A stretch of DNA of 35,401 nt, taken from NCBI GenBank assembly GCA_017116025.1, contig JAFITR010000001.1, positions 1 to 35,401 of the forward strand. The letters run 5' to 3'. The DNA is from Simkania negevensis (lineage in GTDB: Bacteria; Chlamydiota; Chlamydiia; Chlamydiales; JAFITR01). The notes under the pieces are model-generated. The model made no database searches and was not told the DNA's origin. It worked only from the letters and a program-made list of their open reading frames with translations. Positions 2,756 to 16,690 of the stretch are shown here, piece by piece. The position numbers and the translations under genes were made by a program. Positions within the stretch are counted from its first letter, which is position 1. Each line of letters opens with the position of its first letter.

Positions 2756-2935
2756 GTTTAGGTAGCCACGAGAGGAACAAGATCTGCAGGATCGTCAAGA
2801 TTCACAGGATCGCTACTTATGAGACAGAGAAAAAACAAAACATAAAAAAATAATATTTACTGAGTACCTCACAAGTAGCGATCCTGTGAATCTTGACGAT
2901 CTTGCAGATCTTGTTCCTTCCGGTGTCTCGTTAAC
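2756..2935. repeat. Long hairpin element, family A copy 1, between convergent genes
   Basis: 45-nt arms at 2774-2818 and 2873-2917 are complementary with 1 mismatch. The 54-nt loop contains the core cagagaaaaaacaaaacataaaaaaataata. The right terminus is ccttccggtgtctcgTTAAcc (GTTAAC at 2930-2935); the left terminus is degenerate. Confidence 0.85.
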
Positions 2936-2963
2936 CGTCTTCGCGTTAAGCTCCGCTGCCTCG

Positions 2964-3557
2964 TTAACCGGATTTCCAGCGGGGGTAGTCGACGTTGTCC
3001 AGTTTTAAGGCTTCTAGGGCTTTGCCAACAATGAAGTCTTCGGCATCGGAAAGGGTTTTTGGCTTCATGTACCAGGCGGGTACAGGAGGTACAATCACTC
3101 CTCCTAGCCGGGCAACAGTGAGCATGTTCTGCAGGTGGAGTTCAGACAGGGGGGCTTCTCTGGGGACGAGAACGAGGGGCCTTCTTTCTTTGAGGGAGAC
3201 ATCGCAAGCACGTCGGAGCAGGTTGTCGGCGATACCGCAAGCAACAGCGGCGAGGGTGGTCATGCTGCACGGTACAACAAGCATACCGTAGGCGGGGTAG
3301 GAGCCGCTGGCGATAGGAGCTCCGAAGTCTTGGATGTGGTATGTTGTGATTGCTTTCCTTTCTTCTGCGGTAAAAGAGAGGTCACAAAAAACTTCGGGTC
3401 CGCGGCATGGTATATCGAGCTCATATACCGTTGTACAGCATGCGGCTTGCGTCATGACAAGGCAGACGTCGTGGTCCATGGCGATGAGCTTACGGACAGC
3501 TTTTTGCGCTAGGACAATACCTGAAGCTCCGGAGATACCTACGATAATACGTGTCAC
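2964..3557 (-). CDS. ubiX: Flavin prenyltransferase UbiX (UbiX/Pad1 family)
   Basis: Contains RIIVGISGASG near the N-terminus plus typical UbiX blocks (VVPCSMTTLAAVACGIADNLLRRA, PLVLVPRE, PAWY). I place the start at GTG 3557, giving a GTGA overlap with the ubiA stop and a GGAG about 9 nt upstream. The longer track ORF (to 3689) would overlap ubiA by 136 nt. Confidence 0.85.
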   Translation of the reverse strand: MTRIIVGISGASGIVLAQKAVRKLIAMDHDVCLVMTQAACCTTVYELDIPCRGPEVFCDLSFTAEERKAITTYHIQDFGAPIASGSYPAYGMLVVPCSMTTLAAVACGIADNLLRRACDVSLKERRPLVLVPREAPLSELHLQNMLTVARLGGVIVPPVPAWYMKPKTLSDAEDFIVGKALEALKLDNVDYPRWKSG

Positions 3558-4414
3558 AGGAGTGCTCCTATGCAGATGATAAAGGCTGATACTCCCACCA
3601 GAGTGTTGCAGCGGAAAAAGAATCTCCCCACTTCGTAGGAATGGAGAGAGAGTTTCCAGTGCATATAGAGAAAGATTGTGGCGATACACCCTACACCGAC
3701 TAGATAGATGATGGCGTGGGAGAGAAAAAAGGAGAGGGCAACGAGGCAGGTGATGGAGGCGATGTGTAGTAGTCGGACGAACGTCATGCTTTTTTCAATC
3801 CCTAGGACGACAGGCAAGCTGACCAACCCTCTTTTTTTGTCGAAAGAGAGGTCTTGCATTTGGTAGACGATGTCTGTTCCTGCGAAAAGGGTGAGGGCGG
3901 CAAGGCCGAGGAAAACGGGAGGCCACGCCCAGACTCCCGTGATCGCTATCCAAGCACAGATGGGCACAAAAAATTGAATCGCTCCCAAGACGAAGTGGCA
4001 CAAGGAGGTGAAGCGTTTGGTATAGGAGTAGCCGATGAGAAGGAGTAGTAGTAGTGGGGAGAGGAGGAGGATGGGCATGTTGATCAAGCCGCAGGTAACG
4101 ACAAAGCCGGCCGCTGCTGTCCAAGCTAATACCCCCACTTGTAAAGGCGTTGCTTCTCCAGAGGGAAGGACACGCATACGCGTGCGCGGATTATCACCAT
4201 CAATTTTTCGGTCAATCAATCGGTTGAAAGACATCCCTGCTGTCCGTGCAAAGAAAAAGGCGAGGACGATAAAAAGCCATTGGAGTGGACCAAACGCCAG
4301 GAGGGGGGTGTTGGGTATGGCGAGAGGGAGTATGGCGCCTGCAAAAGCCCACGGCAGGCCGAACAGCGTTTGTTCAAGCAAGATCAGTCTCCTGAATGTC
4401 TTCCAGACAATCAC
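3554..4414 (-). CDS. ubiA: UbiA-family aromatic polyprenyltransferase (4-hydroxybenzoate polyprenyltransferase-like; could be the quinone-pathway MqnP-type enzyme)
   Basis: 286-aa polytopic membrane ORF. It has the first Asp-rich motif NRLIDRKIDGDNPRT and a second D-containing motif region (YQMQDLSFDKKRG). It is translationally coupled to ubiX. Confidence 0.8.
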   Translation of the reverse strand: MIVWKTFRRLILLEQTLFGLPWAFAGAILPLAIPNTPLLAFGPLQWLFIVLAFFFARTAGMSFNRLIDRKIDGDNPRTRMRVLPSGEATPLQVGVLAWTAAAGFVVTCGLINMPILLLSPLLLLLLIGYSYTKRFTSLCHFVLGAIQFFVPICAWIAITGVWAWPPVFLGLAALTLFAGTDIVYQMQDLSFDKKRGLVSLPVVLGIEKSMTFVRLLHIASITCLVALSFFLSHAIIYLVGVGCIATIFLYMHWKLSLHSYEVGRFFFRCNTLVGVSAFIICIGALL

Positions 4415-4534
4415 TGCACACGCTCCTCTTAGTTAGTCAAGCAGGATAGGCAACGGAGGTTTAATAGGCAACGGGAGGTTAACGCGAATAACAAAAAAAC
4501 ATAAACGCGAAGAGCGCGAAGAAACGCGAAGACG

Positions 4535-4752
4535 ATTAACGAGACAGCGGGAGGAAACGCAAAGACGCGGAGAGCGCAAAGAAACGCAGAGAAAAAACAA
4601 AATATAAAAAAAATAATAAAGACAAGAAATTTATTATAGTATTTTCTGTTTCTGTTTGCTCTACCTATTTTTAACATAAGATATGAATATGTTTTCTCTG
4701 CGTTTCTTTGCGCTCTCCGCGTCTTTGCGTTTCCTCCCGCTGCCTCGTTAAC
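4535..4752. repeat. Long hairpin element, family B (same termini and core as family A, unrelated arms)
   Basis: About 60-nt arms at 4535-4595 and 4691-4752, complementary with 2 mismatches near the tips. Termini are aTTAAcgagacagcgggagg and cctcccgctgcctcgTTAAc. The loop contains agagaaaaaacaaaatataaaaaaaataata. A related partial copy (ataaacgcgaagagcgcgaagaaacgcgaaga) lies at 4501-4532. Confidence 0.85.
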
Positions 4753-4826
4753 CTCCGCGGTTTGCATTTAGATTCGCCGATGTGGTAACTTATTCAACCC
4801 ATTTTGTAGAAGAGGTTAATAGGGAT

Positions 4827-6548
4827 ATGCGTTTTTCGAAGCTGTTTTTTCATACGTACAAAAATGCTCCTGCTGATGCAGACGTCCCTTCGCACCGTCT
4901 GCTCGAAAGGGGCGGCTACATCCGCCGTTTGGGTCGAGGTTTGTACGGCTACACTCCTTTGATGTGGAGGGTGTTGGGCAAGTTGAAGGAGCTGATTCGC
5001 CAAGAGATTGACAAGAGGGGAGGGCAGGAGATTCGTCTGCCGCAGCTACAGCCTGCAGAGCTGTGGAGGCGTTCGGGCCGTTGGGACGAATACCGTGCGG
5101 AGAAGCTGCTCTACTCATTAGAAGACCGCGAAGGAAATGAGATGTGTATCGCTCCTACTCATGAGGAGGCGGTGACGGAGTTTGTCAATAACTGGCTGAC
5201 GAGTTACAAGCAGCTTCCTCTTATCCTCTACCAAATTGCGGAGAAGTTCCGCGATGAGATCCGTCCTCGCTTTGGCTTGATGCGTGCCAAGGAATTCCTC
5301 ATGAAGGATGCATACTCCTTCTGTCGGACAGAAGAGTCGTTGGATGAGCAGTATGGGTCGATGCGTGAGGCGTATATTGCCATCATGGAACGCCTCGGCT
5401 TGCACTACGTCATCGTTAAAGCGGAAGGGGGCAAGATAGGAAAAGGGAAGTCGGAAGAGTTTCAAGTTGTTGCTGATGTTGGAGAAGATACCATCTTGAC
5501 GTGTGGGAAATTTGCTTCCAATGTGGAGGCTGCAGTCTCTCTCCTTGCTCCCTACCCTTACGACAAGGCATTCAAGGAAATCGCCCTGATCGACACGCCA
5601 GGGATTGGTAGTATCGAAGATCTTGTTCAGCCGACAGGTCTTGCTAAACAGCAGATGCTTAAGACGTTAGTCTATCGATTGAGCTATTCAGATCGCGTGG
5701 ATTTTATCGCTATCGGTTTGAGAGGGGATCGGCAAATTAATGAAGCGAAAGTGGCCAGAGAGTTTGCTCCACTTGAGTTGAGATTGGCAAGCGAGGAGGA
5801 GGTAAAGAAGTTGACGGGGGCTTCTACAGGCTTCGCTGGCCCTATTGGTCTTGAGATTCCATTCTACGCCGACCGGTCGGTGGAGCCGATGACAAACTTC
5901 CTCTGTGGTGCCAATCAGGACGACAAACATCACATCAACGTCAATTGGGGTAGGGATTGCCCAATGCCAAAACTAGATGATTTTCTCTTGGCCGAAGAGG
6001 GAGACTTATGCCCAGAGATGCCTGGTTCTACATATGCCCTGAAGCGTGGTATCGAGGTTGGACATATTTTTAACTTGGGATCAAAATACTCCGTCCAGAT
6101 GGACGTCGGCTACCAAGATGAGAATGGAAAGAAGAAACCGTTTCTTATGGGCTGTTATGGCATTGGTGTAGGCAGACTTGCCCAGGCATGCGTAGAGCAA
6201 AATTATGACGATAGAGGCATCGTATGGCCGCCTGCTATTGCTCCCTATACCGTGAATATCATCCCTTCAAATCCGAAGAATGAACTTCTTTACAATACAG
6301 CAGAATCGCTTTATCTCGAATGTCAAGAGGCGGGGATAGAGGTGCTTTTTGACGATCGCGACGAGAGGATGGGTTTCAAGCTCAAAGATAGCGACCTTAT
6401 CGGGATCCCTCTCAAGGTGATTGTCGGCAAAGCGTTTGAAAAGGAAGGGAAAGTTGAAGTGGAGCCACGTCAGGGAGAGAAGCTTTTTCTTCTTCTGGAT
6501 GAAGTTCTTCCCTGGCTCAAAAGAGAGGGGGGGGGTGATGTCGAGTAG
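4827..6548 (+). CDS. proS: Proline--tRNA ligase (bacterial type with editing insertion)
   Basis: N-terminus MRFSKLFFHTYKNAPADADVPSHRLLERGGYIRR and class II motifs (FRDEIRPRFGLMRAKEF, GCYGIGVGRL). I chose ATG 4827; the track ORF starts at an upstream GTG (4782). Confidence 0.95.
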   Translation: MRFSKLFFHTYKNAPADADVPSHRLLERGGYIRRLGRGLYGYTPLMWRVLGKLKELIRQEIDKRGGQEIRLPQLQPAELWRRSGRWDEYRAEKLLYSLEDREGNEMCIAPTHEEAVTEFVNNWLTSYKQLPLILYQIAEKFRDEIRPRFGLMRAKEFLMKDAYSFCRTEESLDEQYGSMREAYIAIMERLGLHYVIVKAEGGKIGKGKSEEFQVVADVGEDTILTCGKFASNVEAAVSLLAPYPYDKAFKEIALIDTPGIGSIEDLVQPTGLAKQQMLKTLVYRLSYSDRVDFIAIGLRGDRQINEAKVAREFAPLELRLASEEEVKKLTGASTGFAGPIGLEIPFYADRSVEPMTNFLCGANQDDKHHINVNWGRDCPMPKLDDFLLAEEGDLCPEMPGSTYALKRGIEVGHIFNLGSKYSVQMDVGYQDENGKKKPFLMGCYGIGVGRLAQACVEQNYDDRGIVWPPAIAPYTVNIIPSNPKNELLYNTAESLYLECQEAGIEVLFDDRDERMGFKLKDSDLIGIPLKVIVGKAFEKEGKVEVEPRQGEKLFLLLDEVLPWLKREGGGDVE

Positions 6549-7962
6549 TGAGCTCGCTTTATACAACACAGAAAAGAGGAAGAAGGAGCTATTTAAGCCG
6601 TTAGAAGCGGGCTGTGTGAAGATGTATACATGCGGCCCTACTGTCTACGACGTTGCTCACATCGGCAACTTTCGTACCTACCTCTTTGAAGATATTTTGC
6701 GTAGGGCGCTCAAATTCTTTGGTATGGCTGTCACTCATGTGATGAACATCACCGATGTTGACGACAAAACAATACGGGCTGCTGTGGCAAAAGGAGTATC
6801 CCTTCAAGAGTATACAGAGCCCTATATACGCTCGTTTTTTGAAGATCTCGATGCTCTCAACATCGAACGCGCTGAACACTATCCAAAGGCGACGGACTAC
6901 ATCTCACAGATGATAGAGATGATAGAGACATTGATGGACAAGGGACTCGCGTATAAGAGCGACGACGGTAGCGTATACTTTGCTATCCGCCGTTTCCCCC
7001 GCTACGGCTGCCTTTCTCATCTCGATATGGATGAACTGCTGGAGGGTGGCTCTATGCGCGTCCATAGCGATGAATACGATAAAGAAAATGCCTCCGACTT
7101 TGTCTTGTGGAAAACGTATGACGCTGAGCGTGATGGCGGGGTTTATTGGGAAAGCCCTTTTGGCCCAGGACGTCCTGGGTGGCATCTGGAGTGTTCGGCA
7201 ATGGCGACGAGCTTGTTAGGAGATACTTTCGATATTCACTGCGGCGGAGTAGACAATATCTTCCCCCATCACGAGAACGAGATTGCACAATCTGAAGGGT
7301 GCACAGGTAAACGCTTTGTCAATTACTGGATGCATTCTGAACATCTCGTTGTTAACAACAAGAAGATGTCCAAGAGCCTAGGCAACTTCTTTACCCTACG
7401 TGACCTCCTATCTAAAGGATATGACGGCCTTGTTGTACGGTATGCTTTGTTTCAGTCACATTACAAGTCGCAGCTCAACTTCACCATCGATGGATTGGAT
7501 GCAGCACGCGCCTCTCTAGAGCGCTTACAGGATTTCATCCATAGGTTGCAAACAGTGCGCAATGATGTCACAACTGAACACCTTTTTCCCCTAATCGCTA
7601 AAGCGAAAAAAGAGTTTTCCCAAGGCCTTGCCGATGACCTTAACACCCCTGAGGCGTTGGCCGCGTTGTTTGACTTCGTTAAAGAAGTCAATATCCTGTG
7701 CGATGAGGGTAAGGTGAGCACAACAGAAGCTAAGGCAGCTCTTGGAATGCTACAGGAGATAAACAGCGTCTTGGGATTCCTCGCTTTTAAAGAAGATGAG
7801 AATGAAGGCGTTCCACAAGATGTCATTGATGCTGTTGCTGCCAGAGAACAAGCACGTAAAACTAAAAATTGGGCAGAAGCTGACGAGCTGCGGAATTTTG
7901 TGCTGAAAAAGGGCTACCTCATCGAAGACTCCCCCAAAGGCGCACGCATCAAAAAGCTTTAA
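6538..7962 (+). CDS. cysS: Cysteine--tRNA ligase
   Basis: Contains MYTCGPTVYDVAHIGNFRTY (HIGH-type motif), WHLECSAM, PHHENEIAQSE and KMSKSLGN. I chose ATG 6538, which is preceded by a G-rich SD and overlaps the proS 3' end by 11 nt. Confidence 0.95.
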   Translation: MSSSELALYNTEKRKKELFKPLEAGCVKMYTCGPTVYDVAHIGNFRTYLFEDILRRALKFFGMAVTHVMNITDVDDKTIRAAVAKGVSLQEYTEPYIRSFFEDLDALNIERAEHYPKATDYISQMIEMIETLMDKGLAYKSDDGSVYFAIRRFPRYGCLSHLDMDELLEGGSMRVHSDEYDKENASDFVLWKTYDAERDGGVYWESPFGPGRPGWHLECSAMATSLLGDTFDIHCGGVDNIFPHHENEIAQSEGCTGKRFVNYWMHSEHLVVNNKKMSKSLGNFFTLRDLLSKGYDGLVVRYALFQSHYKSQLNFTIDGLDAARASLERLQDFIHRLQTVRNDVTTEHLFPLIAKAKKEFSQGLADDLNTPEALAALFDFVKEVNILCDEGKVSTTEAKAALGMLQEINSVLGFLAFKEDENEGVPQDVIDAVAAREQARKTKNWAEADELRNFVLKKGYLIEDSPKGARIKKL

Positions 7963-7963
7963 G

Positions 7964-8170
7964 GTTAACGAGGCATCGGAAGGAACAAGATTCATAGGCA
8001 GCGGAAAGGAACAAGATCTGCAAGATCGTCAAGATTTACAGGATCGCTACTTGTGAGGCAATCAGTATATATTATTTTTTTTATGTTTTGTTTTTTCTCT
8101 GCCTTATAAGTAGCGATCCTGTAAATCTTGACGATCTTGCAGATCTTGTTCCTTCCGGTGTCTCGTTAAC
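7964..8170. repeat. Long hairpin element, family A copy 2, between convergent cysS and lysS
   Basis: Perfect 45-nt arms at 8008-8052 and 8108-8152. Termini are gTTAAcgaggcatcggaagg (7964-7983) and ccttccggtgtctcgTTAAc (8151-8170). The 55-nt loop is the reverse complement of the copy 1 loop. Confidence 0.9.
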
Positions 8171-8175
8171 CGCCG

Positions 8176-9765
8176 TTAACCCTTCATGAGGGGGAAGAAG
8201 AGCACATCTCTGATGGAGTGTGAGTTGGTGAAGAGCATGACAACTCTATCCATGCCGATACCGATACCTCCTGTAGGGGGCATACCTTGGCAGATCGCTT
8301 CGATGAACTCTTCGTCGAGAGGGTTGGCTTCTTCGTCGCCTGCTTCGCACCGCTCTTGCTGTTCTTCAAGCAGCTTCCTTTGGATGATAGGGTCGTTGAG
8401 TTCTGTGTAGGCGTTACAGATTTCGTGGCCCATGACGTAGCTTTCAAACCGCTCGACCAGCCCCTTTTCTCTATCTTTTTCATTCCTATGTGGTTTGCAT
8501 AGAGGGGTGGTTTCTATGGGGTGGTCAATGATGTGGTGTGGTTGAAGGAGGTGCTGCTCTACCGTTTCTTCGAAGATGAGGGCAGTGAGCAGGCCTCGGC
8601 TTGCCTCTTTTAAAAACTTCGGATCGCCAGCCTCTTTCTCTATTAGAAACGCGGCCATCTCTTCTCTCTTCATCGCATCGATGTCGATATCGGCAAATTT
8701 TTTGATGCTCTGGTGCATGGTGAGACGTGGCCAGGGGGCTTTGTAGTCGACTTCGACCAGCTCTTCATCCAACTCAGGGTTGCCGTATTTGACTTTTGTC
8801 GTACTGAATAGGGTTAGGGCAATCTCTTCAAAAAGATTTTCTGTGAATGACATCAGCTTGTTGTAGTCCCAGTAGGCGGCATAGGCTTCGAGAAGAGTGA
8901 ACTCTGGGTTGTGGTTTTTGTCGATTCCTTCATTGCGGAATACTTTGCCGATCTCAAAGATCTTGTCCATGCCGCCGATGATGAGCTTTTTCAAAGAGAT
9001 CTCTAGCGAGATGCGGCAGAACATATCTTGATCTAAGGAGTGCAGGTGTGTGGTGAAGGGGCGCGCGTTTGCTCCGCCGTAGATGTGTTGGAGGACGGGT
9101 GTTTCCACTTCAAGAAACCCTTCGTCTTCGAAGAAGCTGCGTGTGATGCGTAGGATTTCACTGCGCATGCGGAAGGTGTTGCGTACCTCGTCGTGGTCGA
9201 TGAGGTCCAACCAACGTTTGCGATAGCGCATCTCTTTGTCGACAAGACCTGCATGTTTCTCCGGCAAAGGCAGTAGGGATTTACACAGTAGAGTGACGTG
9301 GTGGACGTAGACAGTAAGTTCTCCCTTTTTTGTGCGGAAGAGGCAGCCTTTGATTCCTAGCCAGTCACCAAAGTCTACCTTTTTCTCGATCACTTTCATC
9401 GGTGAAGGAGCAGGTTCTTCTCCTGCGATATCTTCGGGATTATAGCCTTCGATATGGAGGTGGTCGCGGTTGAACATCAGCTGGATGCGTCCTGTCGCGT
9501 CCTGGATATGGGCAAAAGCATTTTTTCCCATGGCGCGAAAGAGTACGAGGCGTCCAGCGACAACGACAGGAGGCGTGGCCTTGTTGCTCGCTTCTTCGCT
9601 CGTGCCAACAGAATCATCAGCGTACCGATTGTGCAAAGCGTGGGCACTCTCTTTGGGTTCGAAGTGGTGAGGGTAGGGTACGATGCCGAGCTGGCGTAGC
9701 TCATTCAGCTTTTTCAAACGGTTCTGGTATTCTTCTGTGTCTACGTAGTCAGGCTTGTTTGGCAT
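8176..9765 (-). CDS. lysS: Lysine--tRNA ligase, class II
   Basis: 529-aa ORF with an OB-fold N-domain (VVVAGRLVLFRAMGKNAFAHIQDATGRIQL) and class II motifs (FLEVETPVLQ, KVFRNEGID, GIGIGMDRVVMLF). Confidence 0.95.
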   Translation of the reverse strand: MPNKPDYVDTEEYQNRLKKLNELRQLGIVPYPHHFEPKESAHALHNRYADDSVGTSEEASNKATPPVVVAGRLVLFRAMGKNAFAHIQDATGRIQLMFNRDHLHIEGYNPEDIAGEEPAPSPMKVIEKKVDFGDWLGIKGCLFRTKKGELTVYVHHVTLLCKSLLPLPEKHAGLVDKEMRYRKRWLDLIDHDEVRNTFRMRSEILRITRSFFEDEGFLEVETPVLQHIYGGANARPFTTHLHSLDQDMFCRISLEISLKKLIIGGMDKIFEIGKVFRNEGIDKNHNPEFTLLEAYAAYWDYNKLMSFTENLFEEIALTLFSTTKVKYGNPELDEELVEVDYKAPWPRLTMHQSIKKFADIDIDAMKREEMAAFLIEKEAGDPKFLKEASRGLLTALIFEETVEQHLLQPHHIIDHPIETTPLCKPHRNEKDREKGLVERFESYVMGHEICNAYTELNDPIIQRKLLEEQQERCEAGDEEANPLDEEFIEAICQGMPPTGGIGIGMDRVVMLFTNSHSIRDVLFFPLMKG

Positions 9766-12395: not shown

Positions 12396-12464
12396 TCTCT
12401 GTGCGCTCTGTGATCTCTGTGGTGTAAAAAAAATAAACCACAGAGATCACAGAGCGCACAGAGA
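12396..12464. repeat. Perfect 27-bp stem hairpin with an A-rich loop
   Basis: tctctgtgcgctctgtgatctctgtgg (12396-12422) pairs with ccacagagatcacagagcgcacagaga (12438-12464). The loop tgtaaaaaaaataaa resembles the A/B core. A T-run follows on the + strand (12467-12474). Confidence 0.8.
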
Positions 12465-16380: not shown

Positions 16381-16690
16381 GGGACAGCAGGGAGAGAAAA
16401 GGGACAGCAGGGACAGCAAAGACAACAGGGACAACAAAGAATGACTACCCATTTTCAGGCCGAAGGCCTGGGATGTAATAGCCCAGGGCAACGCCCTGGG
16501 TATACCAACCCAAGAAATGCAGCCTGAAAGGCTGCAATATTCGGCCTGGTTTCAAAACTGCCAAACTCGAGCGTTGATTCTCAACGAGCAACATTGAAGA
16601 CCGAAACGACAAAACCGACAAAAACGGACAGTGCTTCTGTTGTCCCTGCTCTCCTTGTCGTCTCTGTTGTCCCTTTCTGTTTCTGCTGTC
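16381..16690. repeat. Composite intergenic repeat: purine-rich quasi-repetitive arms flanking a cargo of short hairpin modules
   Basis: Left arm 16381-16440 (units gggacagcag / gacaacag). The right arm 16637-16690 is an imperfect complement. Internal modules are aggccgaaggcct, gcccagggcaacgccctggg (16481-16500), tgcagcctgaaaggctgcaatattc, and cggcctggtttcaaaactgccaaactcgagcg (16542-16572; 31/32 identical to 26128-26159). Confidence 0.75.

Follow-up and report, generated by a model that had tools for sequence, protein, structure and literature searches.

The three long hairpins at 2755–2936, 4534–4753 and 7963–8171 of the window (the whole 35,401-nt stretch of DNA analyzed here) are probably, with a likelihood that we put at roughly 0.7, gene-less members of hairpin cassettes whose full-length relatives enclose a GxxExxY gene. 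Full-length cassettes with the same arm types carry one small GxxExxY gene of about 125–135 aa between the arms, and this family (TIGR04256/Pfam PDDEXK_3, PF13366) belongs to the PD-(D/E)XK nuclease superfamily. On this reading the A-type and B-type hairpins belong to different cassette lineages, which accounts for their apparent "arm replacement." A link of such hairpin arms to the GxxExxY gene was not found in the literature, nor was any description of chlamydial MITEs or of the B-arm sequence. The source genome is a MAG that is 62% complete (1.40 Mb in 176 contigs) and is placed in a new family within the order Chlamydiales; its LysRS shares only about 66% identity with the nearest relatives. 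The hairpins and the other features of the window are as follows, unstranded unless a strand is given.

2755–2936: element 1, gene-less A-type hairpin (T3, 2755–2775; 5′ arm, 2773–2823; loop, 2824–2867; core, 2826–2855; 3′ arm, 2868–2918; outer unit T, 2916–2936)
2937–2971: D-unit fragment and solo T unit (2949–2969), adjoining element 1
4449–4533: two T2-type units (GGTTTAATAGGCAACGG, 4449–4480) and a solo D-type half-arm (4498–4531), abutting element 2
4534–4753: element 2, gene-less B-type hairpin (T, 4534–4554; 5′ arm of ACGCRRAG units, 4553–4595; loop, 4596–4691; core, 4588–4617, overlapping the arm end; 3′ arm, 4692–4734; T, 4733–4753)
7963–8171: element 3, gene-less A-type hairpin (T, 7963–7983; aborted A/T units, 7984–8005; 5′ arm, 8006–8060; loop, 8061–8099; core on the minus strand, 8071–8100; 3′ arm, 8100–8154; T, 8151–8171)
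8172–8181: partial T unit (GCCGTTAACC), in which TTA at 8176–8178 is the TAA stop of lysS (minus strand)
12396–12464: C-type hairpin with CACAGAG units, an arm type enclosing GxxExxY genes in other Chlamydiales
16398–16676: E-type hairpin with GGGACAGCA units and a REP-like GC-rich block nested in the loop
26025–26233: D-type hairpin with GCGCGAAGA units, the arm type found around the GxxExxY gene on contig C147

The preliminary description had placed three long hairpins at these sites, and this is confirmed by arm pairing of 96–98% and folding z-scores of −15 to −18. The paired arms are 51 nt long and 96% complementary in element 1 (2773–2823/2868–2918), 60 nt and 98% in element 2 (4536–4595/4692–4751), and 55 nt and 96% in element 3 (8006–8060/8100–8154; outer pairing, 7963–7991/8143–8171); the z-scores are −15.3, −16.9, and −18.2, respectively, and none of 200 shuffles folded as well. 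As had been claimed, the A and B arms are unrelated in sequence, both are made of 8–9-nt quasi-repeats (A arm unit, CAAGATnnn; B arm unit, ACGCRRAG), and the gene context is convergent at two sites and divergent at one. The terminus (TTAACGAGRCAKCGGRAGG) and the core (AGAGAAAAAACAAAAYATAAAAAAA) regarded as common to the elements are indeed present, but both need qualification. First, the terminus is a repeat unit: the 19–22-nt outer unit T (GGTTAACGAGGCAGCGGAAGG), with variants T2 and T3, is also iterated in tandem with a period of 15–22 nt or stands solo (e.g., 2949–2969, 4449–4480, and 8172–8181), and element 1 begins on the left with the variant T3 (GGTTTAGGTAGCCACGAGAGG). Second, the core belongs genome-wide to the family-A loop; among B elements, element 2 alone has it complete, and several other B arms have just the first core half, AGAGAAAAAAC(A)AAA, at the inner end. 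In this genome, A and B have the outer T units in common, and the loop core is shared by one chimeric copy. The conserved ends of the elements are GGTTAAC...GTTAACC. Since GGTTAAC lies inside an iterated 19–22-nt unit, the TTAA copies belong to the inverted repeat, and their interpretation as a target-site duplication is not supported.

The proposed survey with the terminus and core motifs was extended to the arms, using a custom seed-and-extend finder together with blastn-short; whole-contig self-BLAST overlooked most hairpins. It yielded 229 loci with matches to T-type units or to arms A/A2, B, C, D, and E, and the MAG contains some 50 paired hairpins and roughly 100 arms that stand singly, from at least five arm families (A–E), many of them truncated at contig ends. 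The elements are small, non-coding, multi-copy, and dispersed, with inverted arms that each hold at least three tandem 7–10-nt units, typically three to four of 8–9 nt. A and B arms are also found without T units, and occur as well in other genomes that are entirely T-free. A scan of genome and metagenome contig collections with the terminus pattern returned single chance matches only, and one locus (L015) is coding sequence. Several copies have a complex structure: the loop is in opposite orientation in two copies (C93:9360–9520 and C93:13023–13185), hairpins are nested in one another (B outside A outside E in L031, and A outside B in L032), IS insertions sit within some copies, and minimal T-TTAA-T′ palindromes occur (e.g., C19:1675–1715). 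At one orthologous site, three genomes of a single genus differ, with a B hairpin, a GGGCAC-type arm, or nothing present. Nesting, this turnover, and the identical multi-copy genes described below are indirect signs of mobility.

In gene-bearing copies the start codon borders the 5′ arm on its inner side; the stop codon abuts the 3′ arm. The MAG itself encodes a 135-aa protein of this family between D arms (C147:6833–7240, minus strand; PF13366, E = 3.6e-37; TIGR04256, E = 2.1e-37). A second gene is in pieces, its 3′ half at C75:2164–2326 (minus strand) and its 5′ part, with the motif GFLESVY, at C161:3–130 (minus strand); both pieces stand behind T3 + A2 arms that are mirror images with 94% identity. 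A B-armed gene-bearing copy was not found in this 62%-complete genome, and the gene-less A loops hold no obvious remnant of the A2 cassette interior. B- and C-type arms surround the GxxExxY gene in many other chlamydial families. B-arm DNA occurs in 58 of 400 Chlamydiales genomes and 49 of 216 genera, with a unit sequence conserved between chlamydial families, and all 10 loci inspected were inverted pairs. TIGR04256 was detected in 121 of 300 Chlamydiales genomes (about 40%), with identical genes in multiple copies within genomes and up to at least 14 copies per genome, and in none of 14 model genomes above the cut-off. Among the 14 loci inspected first, the gene is flanked by clear C-type arms at 11; in a second set of 20 taken together with the G016 locus, about 16 carry B-type arms or B-variants. 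At B-armed loci, among them G016 and G243, the gene runs from an ATG right after the 5′ arm to a stop codon right before the 3′ arm. The strand of the cassette gene agrees with that of the upstream host gene in 18 cases and is opposite in 9, by a crude method based on 300-nt flanks. B hairpins and the GxxExxY gene co-occur (30/41 vs. 90/258 genomes), a comparison confounded by phylogeny and genome size.

Arm type also tracks the protein clade. On a tree of 34 GxxExxY proteins the arm label changes 3 times for B and 5 times for C, compared with about 11.5 for shuffled labels, and shuffles did as well in 0/500 cases for B and 1/500 for C. B and C protein clades can coexist in one genome. This association could reflect plain co-inheritance within the cassette and not recognition of the arms by the protein. 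Catalytic-type D...E.K residues are kept in all 34 proteins, and when solved structures were searched by sequence with the GxxExxY protein, no significant match came up. The preliminary description had assigned the elements to a single family in which arms were replaced; A and B instead turn out to be separate order-wide lineages, each with its own GxxExxY gene lineage.

Retention of pairing within each element, by contrast with arm replacement, was upheld by the covariation check. In T-B elements the mismatch is 9.4% between an element's own arms vs. 17.0% when arms are paired across elements, and in T-A elements 16.1% vs. 24.2%; none of 2000 permutations gave values as low as those of own arms. 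Variant bases are mirrored between the two arms of each copy, indicating that the hairpin itself is maintained. Hairpin loci lie at 20 convergent, 33 tandem, and 12 divergent positions (104, 595, and 129 for all gene junctions), a strong excess at convergent ends, and are placed tightly behind stop codons. The stop codon lies inside a T-type unit in 19 of 947 genes (TAA in 16 and TAG in 3), and 15 of these genes have exactly GGT-TAA-C at their end. In the window, the TAA stop of ubiX (2964–2966, minus strand) is supplied by GTTAAC of the solo T unit at 2949–2969, and the cysS stop (7960–7962) directly adjoins element 3. LysRS ends one residue past the conserved ...MK, and its homologues have variable tails, which would agree with an insertion into a tail that is dispensable and is neutral with regard to a TTAA duplication.

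How such cassettes operate can be proposed tentatively. At somewhat less than even odds, GxxExxY proteins, a large family, would be the nucleases of an unrecognized class of selfish, mobile hairpin cassettes, in which each protein lineage may recognize the 8–9-nt units that make up its arms, or else the hairpin or cruciform into which these arms fold. Gene-less hairpins would be non-autonomous derivatives of gene-bearing cassettes or their homing targets. Complementarity would be kept by recombination or gene conversion between the arms, possibly with added selection for a stem processed from the transcript, as in rRNA intervening sequences. Such a stem would let the insert be cut from transcripts, so that insertion behind stop codons is tolerated. 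The stop-codon pattern and the surplus of convergent sites would both follow if insertions survive only where the reading frame of the host gene stays closed.

The same placement could be read as a sign that the elements serve the host and are not mobile, acting as bidirectional transcript-end stems, RNase III sites, or arrays of global-regulator sites. The strong convergent-end excess with stop codons close by, the mirrored changes that conserve pairing, and the B unit conserved across chlamydial families all fit, but we consider this reading unlikely. No T tract follows the stems (50–80 bp), and a terminator scan located no terminator-like site in the three elements; a scan against Rfam 15 gave nothing at the gathering threshold, and below it only plant miRNA precursor models, which match generic long hairpins. 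Moreover, the copies interrupt the assembly, lie inside one another, vary at one orthologous site between genomes of a genus, and contain IS insertions, and the same arms surround a multi-copy nuclease-like gene. A secondary RNA-level effect of the hairpins is possible.

The elements had also been called MITE-like, which holds for their being dispersed, non-coding repeats; a TTAA duplication is not supported, and a transposase with matching ends was not found. A classical MITE would be a deletion derivative of an IS, mobilized in trans by a DDE transposase that recognizes the GGTTAACGAGG... ends and duplicates TTAA on insertion. Such an origin would suit the conserved inverted termini flanked by TTAA, the numerous scattered copies without coding capacity, and the minimal T-TTAA-T′ palindromes; symmetric nested T pairs would be expected if a central TTAA had received insertions more than once. 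Against it, the conserved stretch reaches past TTAA and takes in GG/CC, the unit recurs in tandem, A and B arms exist apart from T units, and every transposase-like gene (three DDE_Tnp_1, one rve, and three Y1_Tnp) has unrelated ends. In this 62%-complete genome, a transposase with terminal repeats matching GGTTAACGAGGCAGCGG was not found, nor were DDE_3, TnpB-type, or piggyBac-type genes (the piggyBac search lacking a positive control); the search for a partner transposase led instead to the enclosed PD-(D/E)XK-type gene. We therefore regard a MITE origin as quite improbable. A REPIN-type origin, in which REP doublets are spread by a RAYT (an IS200-like tyrosine transposase) via single-stranded hairpin intermediates, appears very improbable. 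The genome does have three Y1_Tnp genes, compensatory changes are common in REPIN hairpins (PMC3116915) and are seen in the present ones too, and insertion at hairpin tips would suit single-strand chemistry; however, the three RAYT-like genes all have GC-rich palindromes of their own (family F) on their flanks and not T, A, or B units, which are themselves not short palindromes, and no GTAG/CGTC tag was seen on reading the sequences. Chimeric fold-back contigs arising in assembly or amplification, to which the many copies at contig ends might point, can practically be dismissed, since dozens of copies lie inside contigs between unique flanks, with diverged sequence and consistent architecture, and homologous hairpins occur in hundreds of independent assemblies, including single-contig genomes.

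If the link between hairpin cassettes and GxxExxY genes holds, a common "hypothetical" family (TIGR04256/PF13366) acquires a biological context, and inverted arrays of 7–10-nt units, a widespread kind of repeat between bacterial genes earlier read as regulator sites or quadruplex formers, are explained as mobile DNA. The obligate intracellular Chlamydiales would then harbor a set of small, active selfish elements that reshape the 3′ ends of genes (2% of genes here stop inside one), break metagenome assemblies, and may form long double-stranded RNA stems between convergent genes. The hairpin arms also provide a clean natural data set on the concerted evolution of palindromes.

Several known systems resemble these cassettes in part. 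The ORF-bearing intervening sequences of 23S rRNA and the stand-alone PF05635 ("23S_rRNA_IVP") genes likewise have a small gene in the loop of a long stem; the stem of the intervening sequences is removed by RNase III. In Chlamydiales, PF05635 genes are enclosed by inverted arrays of 6–7-nt units, e.g., GGGCAC and GTTCGGA. They differ in gene family, in their shorter units, and in their rRNA location, whereas the present elements lie between protein genes; PF05635 has no match in this genome. Drosophila Foldback (FB) elements, which are eukaryotic and kilobase-sized, have long inverted arms of short tandem sub-repeats, a variable center, and a different transposase, and are alike in design only.

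Among bacterial repeats, the predicted global regulator binding sites of classes 1–3 in Geobacter metallireducens (Aklujkar et al., 2009; PMC2700814) come close: they form opposite-strand pairs at variable distance, with 3–5 tandem units of 7–9 nt and dozens of sites per genome. Their unit sequences are different and they are read as regulator sites, and the part of that report available to us mentions no enclosed gene, outer T-type units, or arm covariation. GGGNATC heptamer arrays of Xanthomonas and Nostoc, described as G-quadruplex formers and as mostly transcribed (Rehm et al., 2015; PMC4692102), are similarly abundant between genes, have about four 7-nt units, and are overrepresented in the 50 bp next to stop codons; the available portion of that paper does not mention pairing into hairpins or a gene enclosed by the arrays. 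Classical bacterial MITEs such as Correia/NEMIS, RUP, and ERIC (reviewed in PMC3184786 and PMC3733652) are also small, non-coding, intergenic inverted repeats that can supply stop codons or transcript ends, but their ends of 15–30 nt match the terminal repeats of an IS transposase, whereas the present elements are almost all stem, with iterated units and no matching IS found. Finally, REPINs (Bertels and Rainey, 2011; PMC3116915) are dispersed, non-coding extragenic doublets that fold into hairpins, with changes on one side compensated on the other, and they are regarded as the non-autonomous partners of a gene present in single copy. Their ends are short REP palindromes and their partner is a tyrosine transposase flanked by such palindromes, whereas the cassettes described here have arms of tandem 8–9-nt units and enclose a PD-(D/E)XK-type GxxExxY gene.

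These three hairpins are gene-less members of hairpin-cassette families, in which the gene-bearing members encode a nuclease-like protein of the GxxExxY family (TIGR04256; Pfam PF13366, PDDEXK_3) between the two arms. Their presence in the window, as proposed in the preliminary description, is borne out by arm pairing, folding, and the shared ends and core. The following pairs were returned by a repeat finder:

Element 1 (2755-2936), arm pair: 2773-2823 with 2868-2918, 51 nt, 96% complementary
Element 2 (4534-4753), arm pair: 4536-4595 with 4692-4751, 60 nt, 98% complementary
Element 3 (7963-8171), arm pair: 8006-8060 with 8100-8154, 55 nt, 96% complementary
Element 3, outer pairing: 7963-7991 with 8143-8171

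Arm A, composed of CAAGATnnn units, is common to elements 1 and 3, and the arm of element 2 belongs to family B with ACGCRRAG units; all three have ends of the GGTTAACGAG type as well as the A-rich core. Single-strand folding energies of the three elements are -58, -83 (DNA parameters), and -128 kcal/mol (RNA parameters), with z-scores of -15.3, -16.9, and -18.2 for elements 1, 2, and 3, respectively, and none of 200 shuffles was as stable. The intergenic siting also held, element 1 lying between the convergent kinase-FGE and ubiX genes, element 3 between the convergent cysS and lysS genes, and element 2 between the divergent ubiA and proS genes.

The source assembly (1.40 Mb, 176 contigs, 62% complete), whose contig C1 is the window, has a LysRS at most 66% identical to any other database protein, the named matches being Chlamydiales MAGs and Neochlamydia, and all 40 "relatives" are related to it at the order level only; it therefore represents a new family of Chlamydiales. 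The outer terminus noticed earlier is real but is a repeat unit (T, GGTTAACGAGGCAGCGGAAGG), which also occurs in tandem and alone and has two variants:

T2, variant of the T unit: GGTTTAATAGGCAACGGGAGG
T3, variant of the T unit: GGTTTAGATAGCCACGAAAGG

Genome-wide, 37 T units were counted with up to three mismatches, commonly two or three in tandem at both element ends and sometimes solo. The common layout is T(n)-X-loop-X'-T'(n). B hairpins without the left T unit also occur (e.g., C93:9393-9498, from a subfamily with asymmetric conserved flanks), as do minimal T-T' palindromes with TTAA at the tip (e.g., C19:1675-1715). Families A/A2 and B each occupy about 25-45 loci. In total, 73 merged hairpin loci were obtained with our own finder (arms of at least 24 nt), and contig ends carry many further single arms, indicating that these repeats break the assembly. 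Three more arm families of like design are present in the genome and in the window:

C-type hairpin: 12396-12464, CACAGAG units
D-type hairpin: 26025-26233, GCGCGAAGA units
E-type hairpin: 16398-16676, GGGACAGCA units

Comparison of the copies shows that the A-rich core is no common centre between exchangeable arms. Aligned family-A copies have a conserved loop, ...GAGGCAGYCAGTACAT...CCTGAATAGTTRYATTATTTTTTATATTTTGTTTTTTCTCGACCTYATAAG, of which elements 1 and 3 are short-loop forms and the core is the final part. Loops of the B family are heterogeneous, and among them only element 2 contains the full core. B arms usually finish on the inner side with the first half of the core, AGAGAAAAAAC(A)AAA; the core is therefore best read as an inner arm end of type B or C carried in the family-A loop, and element 2 as its natural or recombinant carrier.

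Gene-bearing and gene-less copies of the same arm types share one architecture. TIGR04256 has three matches in this genome (C147, C75, and C161), one of which is complete:

C147:6833-7240, minus strand: GxxExxY gene, 135 aa; PF13366 E 3.6e-37, TIGR04256 E 2.1e-37

The stop codon of this gene is directly followed by a D arm, and another, degenerate one lies ahead of its start. On the outer side, the D arm of this cassette is directly adjoined by 2.5 copies of a 25-nt unit (CTCAAAATTAACGTTGCGGACCTAA; C147:6720-6784), an outer tandem unit positioned as T units are in A and B elements. The end of contig C75 consists of T3, an A2 arm, and the 3' half of a second GxxExxY gene, and contig C161 starts with a 5' gene part (motif GFLESVY) followed by a mirror-image A2 arm and T3. 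The A2 arms of the two are 94% identical, and these contig ends represent a single A2-armed cassette divided by a contig break; family A, which includes elements 1 and 3, is thus represented in this genome by a gene-bearing relative as well.

TIGR04256 was found in 121 of 300 Chlamydiales genomes (116 above the cut-off), some of which have at least 14 equally scoring copies, and in none of 14 model genomes above the cut-off. C-type arms are clear at 11 of the 14 GxxExxY loci of a first set from other Chlamydiales, where ACCACAGAGnnCACAGAG... leads into the beginning of the reading frame and the stop is directly followed by ...CTCTGTGGT. In a second set (20 loci and one from G016), the arms are of type B or similar to it (ACACAAAG, ACGCAAAA) at about 16 loci, with ATG directly after the last unit and the 3' arm beginning at the stop codon or no more than a few bases away. 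Arm type is coupled to protein clade: the 34-protein tree unites the B-armed genes in a single clade (SH-aLRT 96) and places most of the C-armed ones in a second (SH-aLRT 86), and the arm label changes 3 (B) and 5 (C) times on the tree vs about 11.5 times when shuffled, with 0/500 (B) and 1/500 (C) shuffles as good. Both clades extend across many chlamydial families and can be present in a single genome. The D...E.K residues typical of PD-(D/E)XK enzymes are kept in all 34 proteins. Genes of another family, PF05635, occur in 57 of 300 Chlamydiales genomes, most of 12 inspected loci being wrapped by arms of 6-7-nt units; none was found in the contigs of this genome. At six such loci (L042, L044, L046, L048, L049, and L051), the gene, annotated as "23S rRNA intervening sequence protein", lies inside inverted GGGCAC/GGGCAA hexamer arrays, which are sometimes several in tandem, and L040 has GTTCGGA heptamers.

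The hairpins are dispersed in multiple copies, nested, and turned over between genomes of one genus. The B arm of element 2 was matched in 58 of 400 genomes of the order, belonging to 49 genera and many families, and all 10 B-match loci read are hairpins with arms of ACGCAAAG units and unrelated loops. A-type arms are rarer, with at least 4 of 400 other genomes matched when two candidates were scored per genome, and pattern scans of genome and metagenome contigs found no T units in other genomes. B arms lie outside A-like and these outside E-like arms in one genome, and A-like outside B elsewhere. G243, a single contig, has more than 50 such hairpins; B-type arm units also form long head-to-tail arrays there, whose periods are about 125 and 50 nt (G243:C1:2337173-2337964 and 520344-520775). 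At one orthologous transporter gene, the region behind the stop codon differs among three genomes of a single genus, to which G243 belongs: it holds a B hairpin in one, an arm of GGGCAC type in another, and no repeat in the third. The loci compared were:

L067: G243:C1:182164-182242
L068: G259:C6
L069: G219:C1

The arms evolve in concert. When both arms of each copy were projected on the family consensus, own-arm mismatch was 9.4% for T-B and 16.1% for T-A, against 17.0 and 24.2%, respectively, for left arms paired with right arms of other copies (0/2000 permutations each). Mirrored departures from the consensus occur 36 times at 17 columns in B and 77 times at 28 columns in A, and some are private to one copy, including within T units about 200 nt apart; for instance, CCAGG, GTGG, and GCCGAG are present on both sides at C111:14375. 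Chimerism is seen in a few A elements (C68, C117, and C122), whose left arm is of type A2 and whose right arm is of type A. In the B-short subfamily with asymmetric flanks, the loop of C93:13023-13185 is inverted relative to four others with the outer orientation unchanged; this copy and C93:9360-9520 have identical asymmetric flanks and oppositely oriented loops. The flip looks like a product of arm-arm recombination, of which it is an expected outcome and which would homogenise the two arms. Selection on the stem may act in addition.

The elements are placed behind stop codons. At the left end conservation extends through GGTTAAC and at the right end through GTTAACC, and the GGTTAAC-containing unit is iterated symmetrically on both sides with a 15-22-nt period. 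Unless an empty site is compared, a palindromic TTAA looks the same as an extension of the inverted repeat. Among 947 genes with a complete stop, 19 (16 TAA and 3 TAG) stop inside a T-type unit, all of them entering it from outside, and 15 end exactly GGT-TAA-C, so that those proteins finish with an element-encoded glycine. The ubiX stop (2964-2966) lies inside such a unit and the lysS stop (8176-8178) in a partial one, LysRS ending one residue past the conserved ...MK, the point from which the tails of homologues vary (0-15 residues). Other genes extend into the arms in the two remaining frames. Cassettes would insert into or beside 3' gene ends, and copies closing the frame at once would then survive; there may also be a genuine target preference for TTAA or GGTTAACC.

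A search for the partner transposase expected of MITE-like elements returned no transposase-like gene with matching ends in this genome. The ends of three DDE_Tnp_1 genes and one rve gene are unrelated to the elements, and no DDE_3, TnpB-type, or piggyBac-type genes were found in this 62%-complete genome. Three Y1_Tnp (RAYT-like) genes (C166:7735-8076, C24:12664-13002, and C96:3937-4266) were also rejected, since GC-rich REP-like palindromes of their own (GGCCGAAGGTC, CCCAGGGCAACGCCCTGGG, and TGCAGCCTGAAAGGCTGCA), and not T, A, or B units, flank each of them on both sides. These palindromes (family F), with arms reaching 136 nt at C24, form a repeat system separate from the T/A/B hairpins, the second in this small genome. 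The window has them at 16455-16560, 25927-25969, and 26094-26160, with copies nested in the loops of its E and D hairpins. An ISAs1-like IS (C150:55-1345; DDE_Tnp_1; ends CAGGGCGATTTTACCAAT) lies in an A-element loop with a 9-bp duplication, CTATTCAGG, and an IS4-like one (C144:4600-6125; DDE_Tnp_1; ends CCCCATACGCATCAAGTTAAG) within a family-F palindrome; hairpin loops and tips apparently attract or tolerate IS insertion.

We infer that the cassettes move and that the GxxExxY protein acts on its own arms or on the hairpin or cruciform; gene-less copies would depend on this protein or serve as its targets. The stem may also matter at the RNA level. Because the start codon of the cassette gene is at the stem foot and the interior is too small for a promoter, expression would need read-through, after which the stem would be opened or cut. 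In a count from 300-nt flanks, by a method too crude to weigh for or against this, 18 cassette genes are on the same strand as the upstream gene and 9 on the opposite strand.

Literature searches turned up no description of the link between hairpins and GxxExxY, and nothing on chlamydial MITEs or the B-arm sequence. The chance is considerable that the underlying cassette, in its gene-bearing form, represents a so far undescribed class of selfish element. Partial descriptions are the paired tandem 7-9-nt "global regulator binding sites" of Geobacter (PMC2700814) and the GGGNATC arrays close to stop codons in Xanthomonas and Nostoc (PMC4692102), and, third, REPINs, which display the same type of compensatory hairpin change as is seen in the arms of these elements (PMC3116915). 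The three elements therefore resemble known non-autonomous hairpin repeats, as a variant of them.
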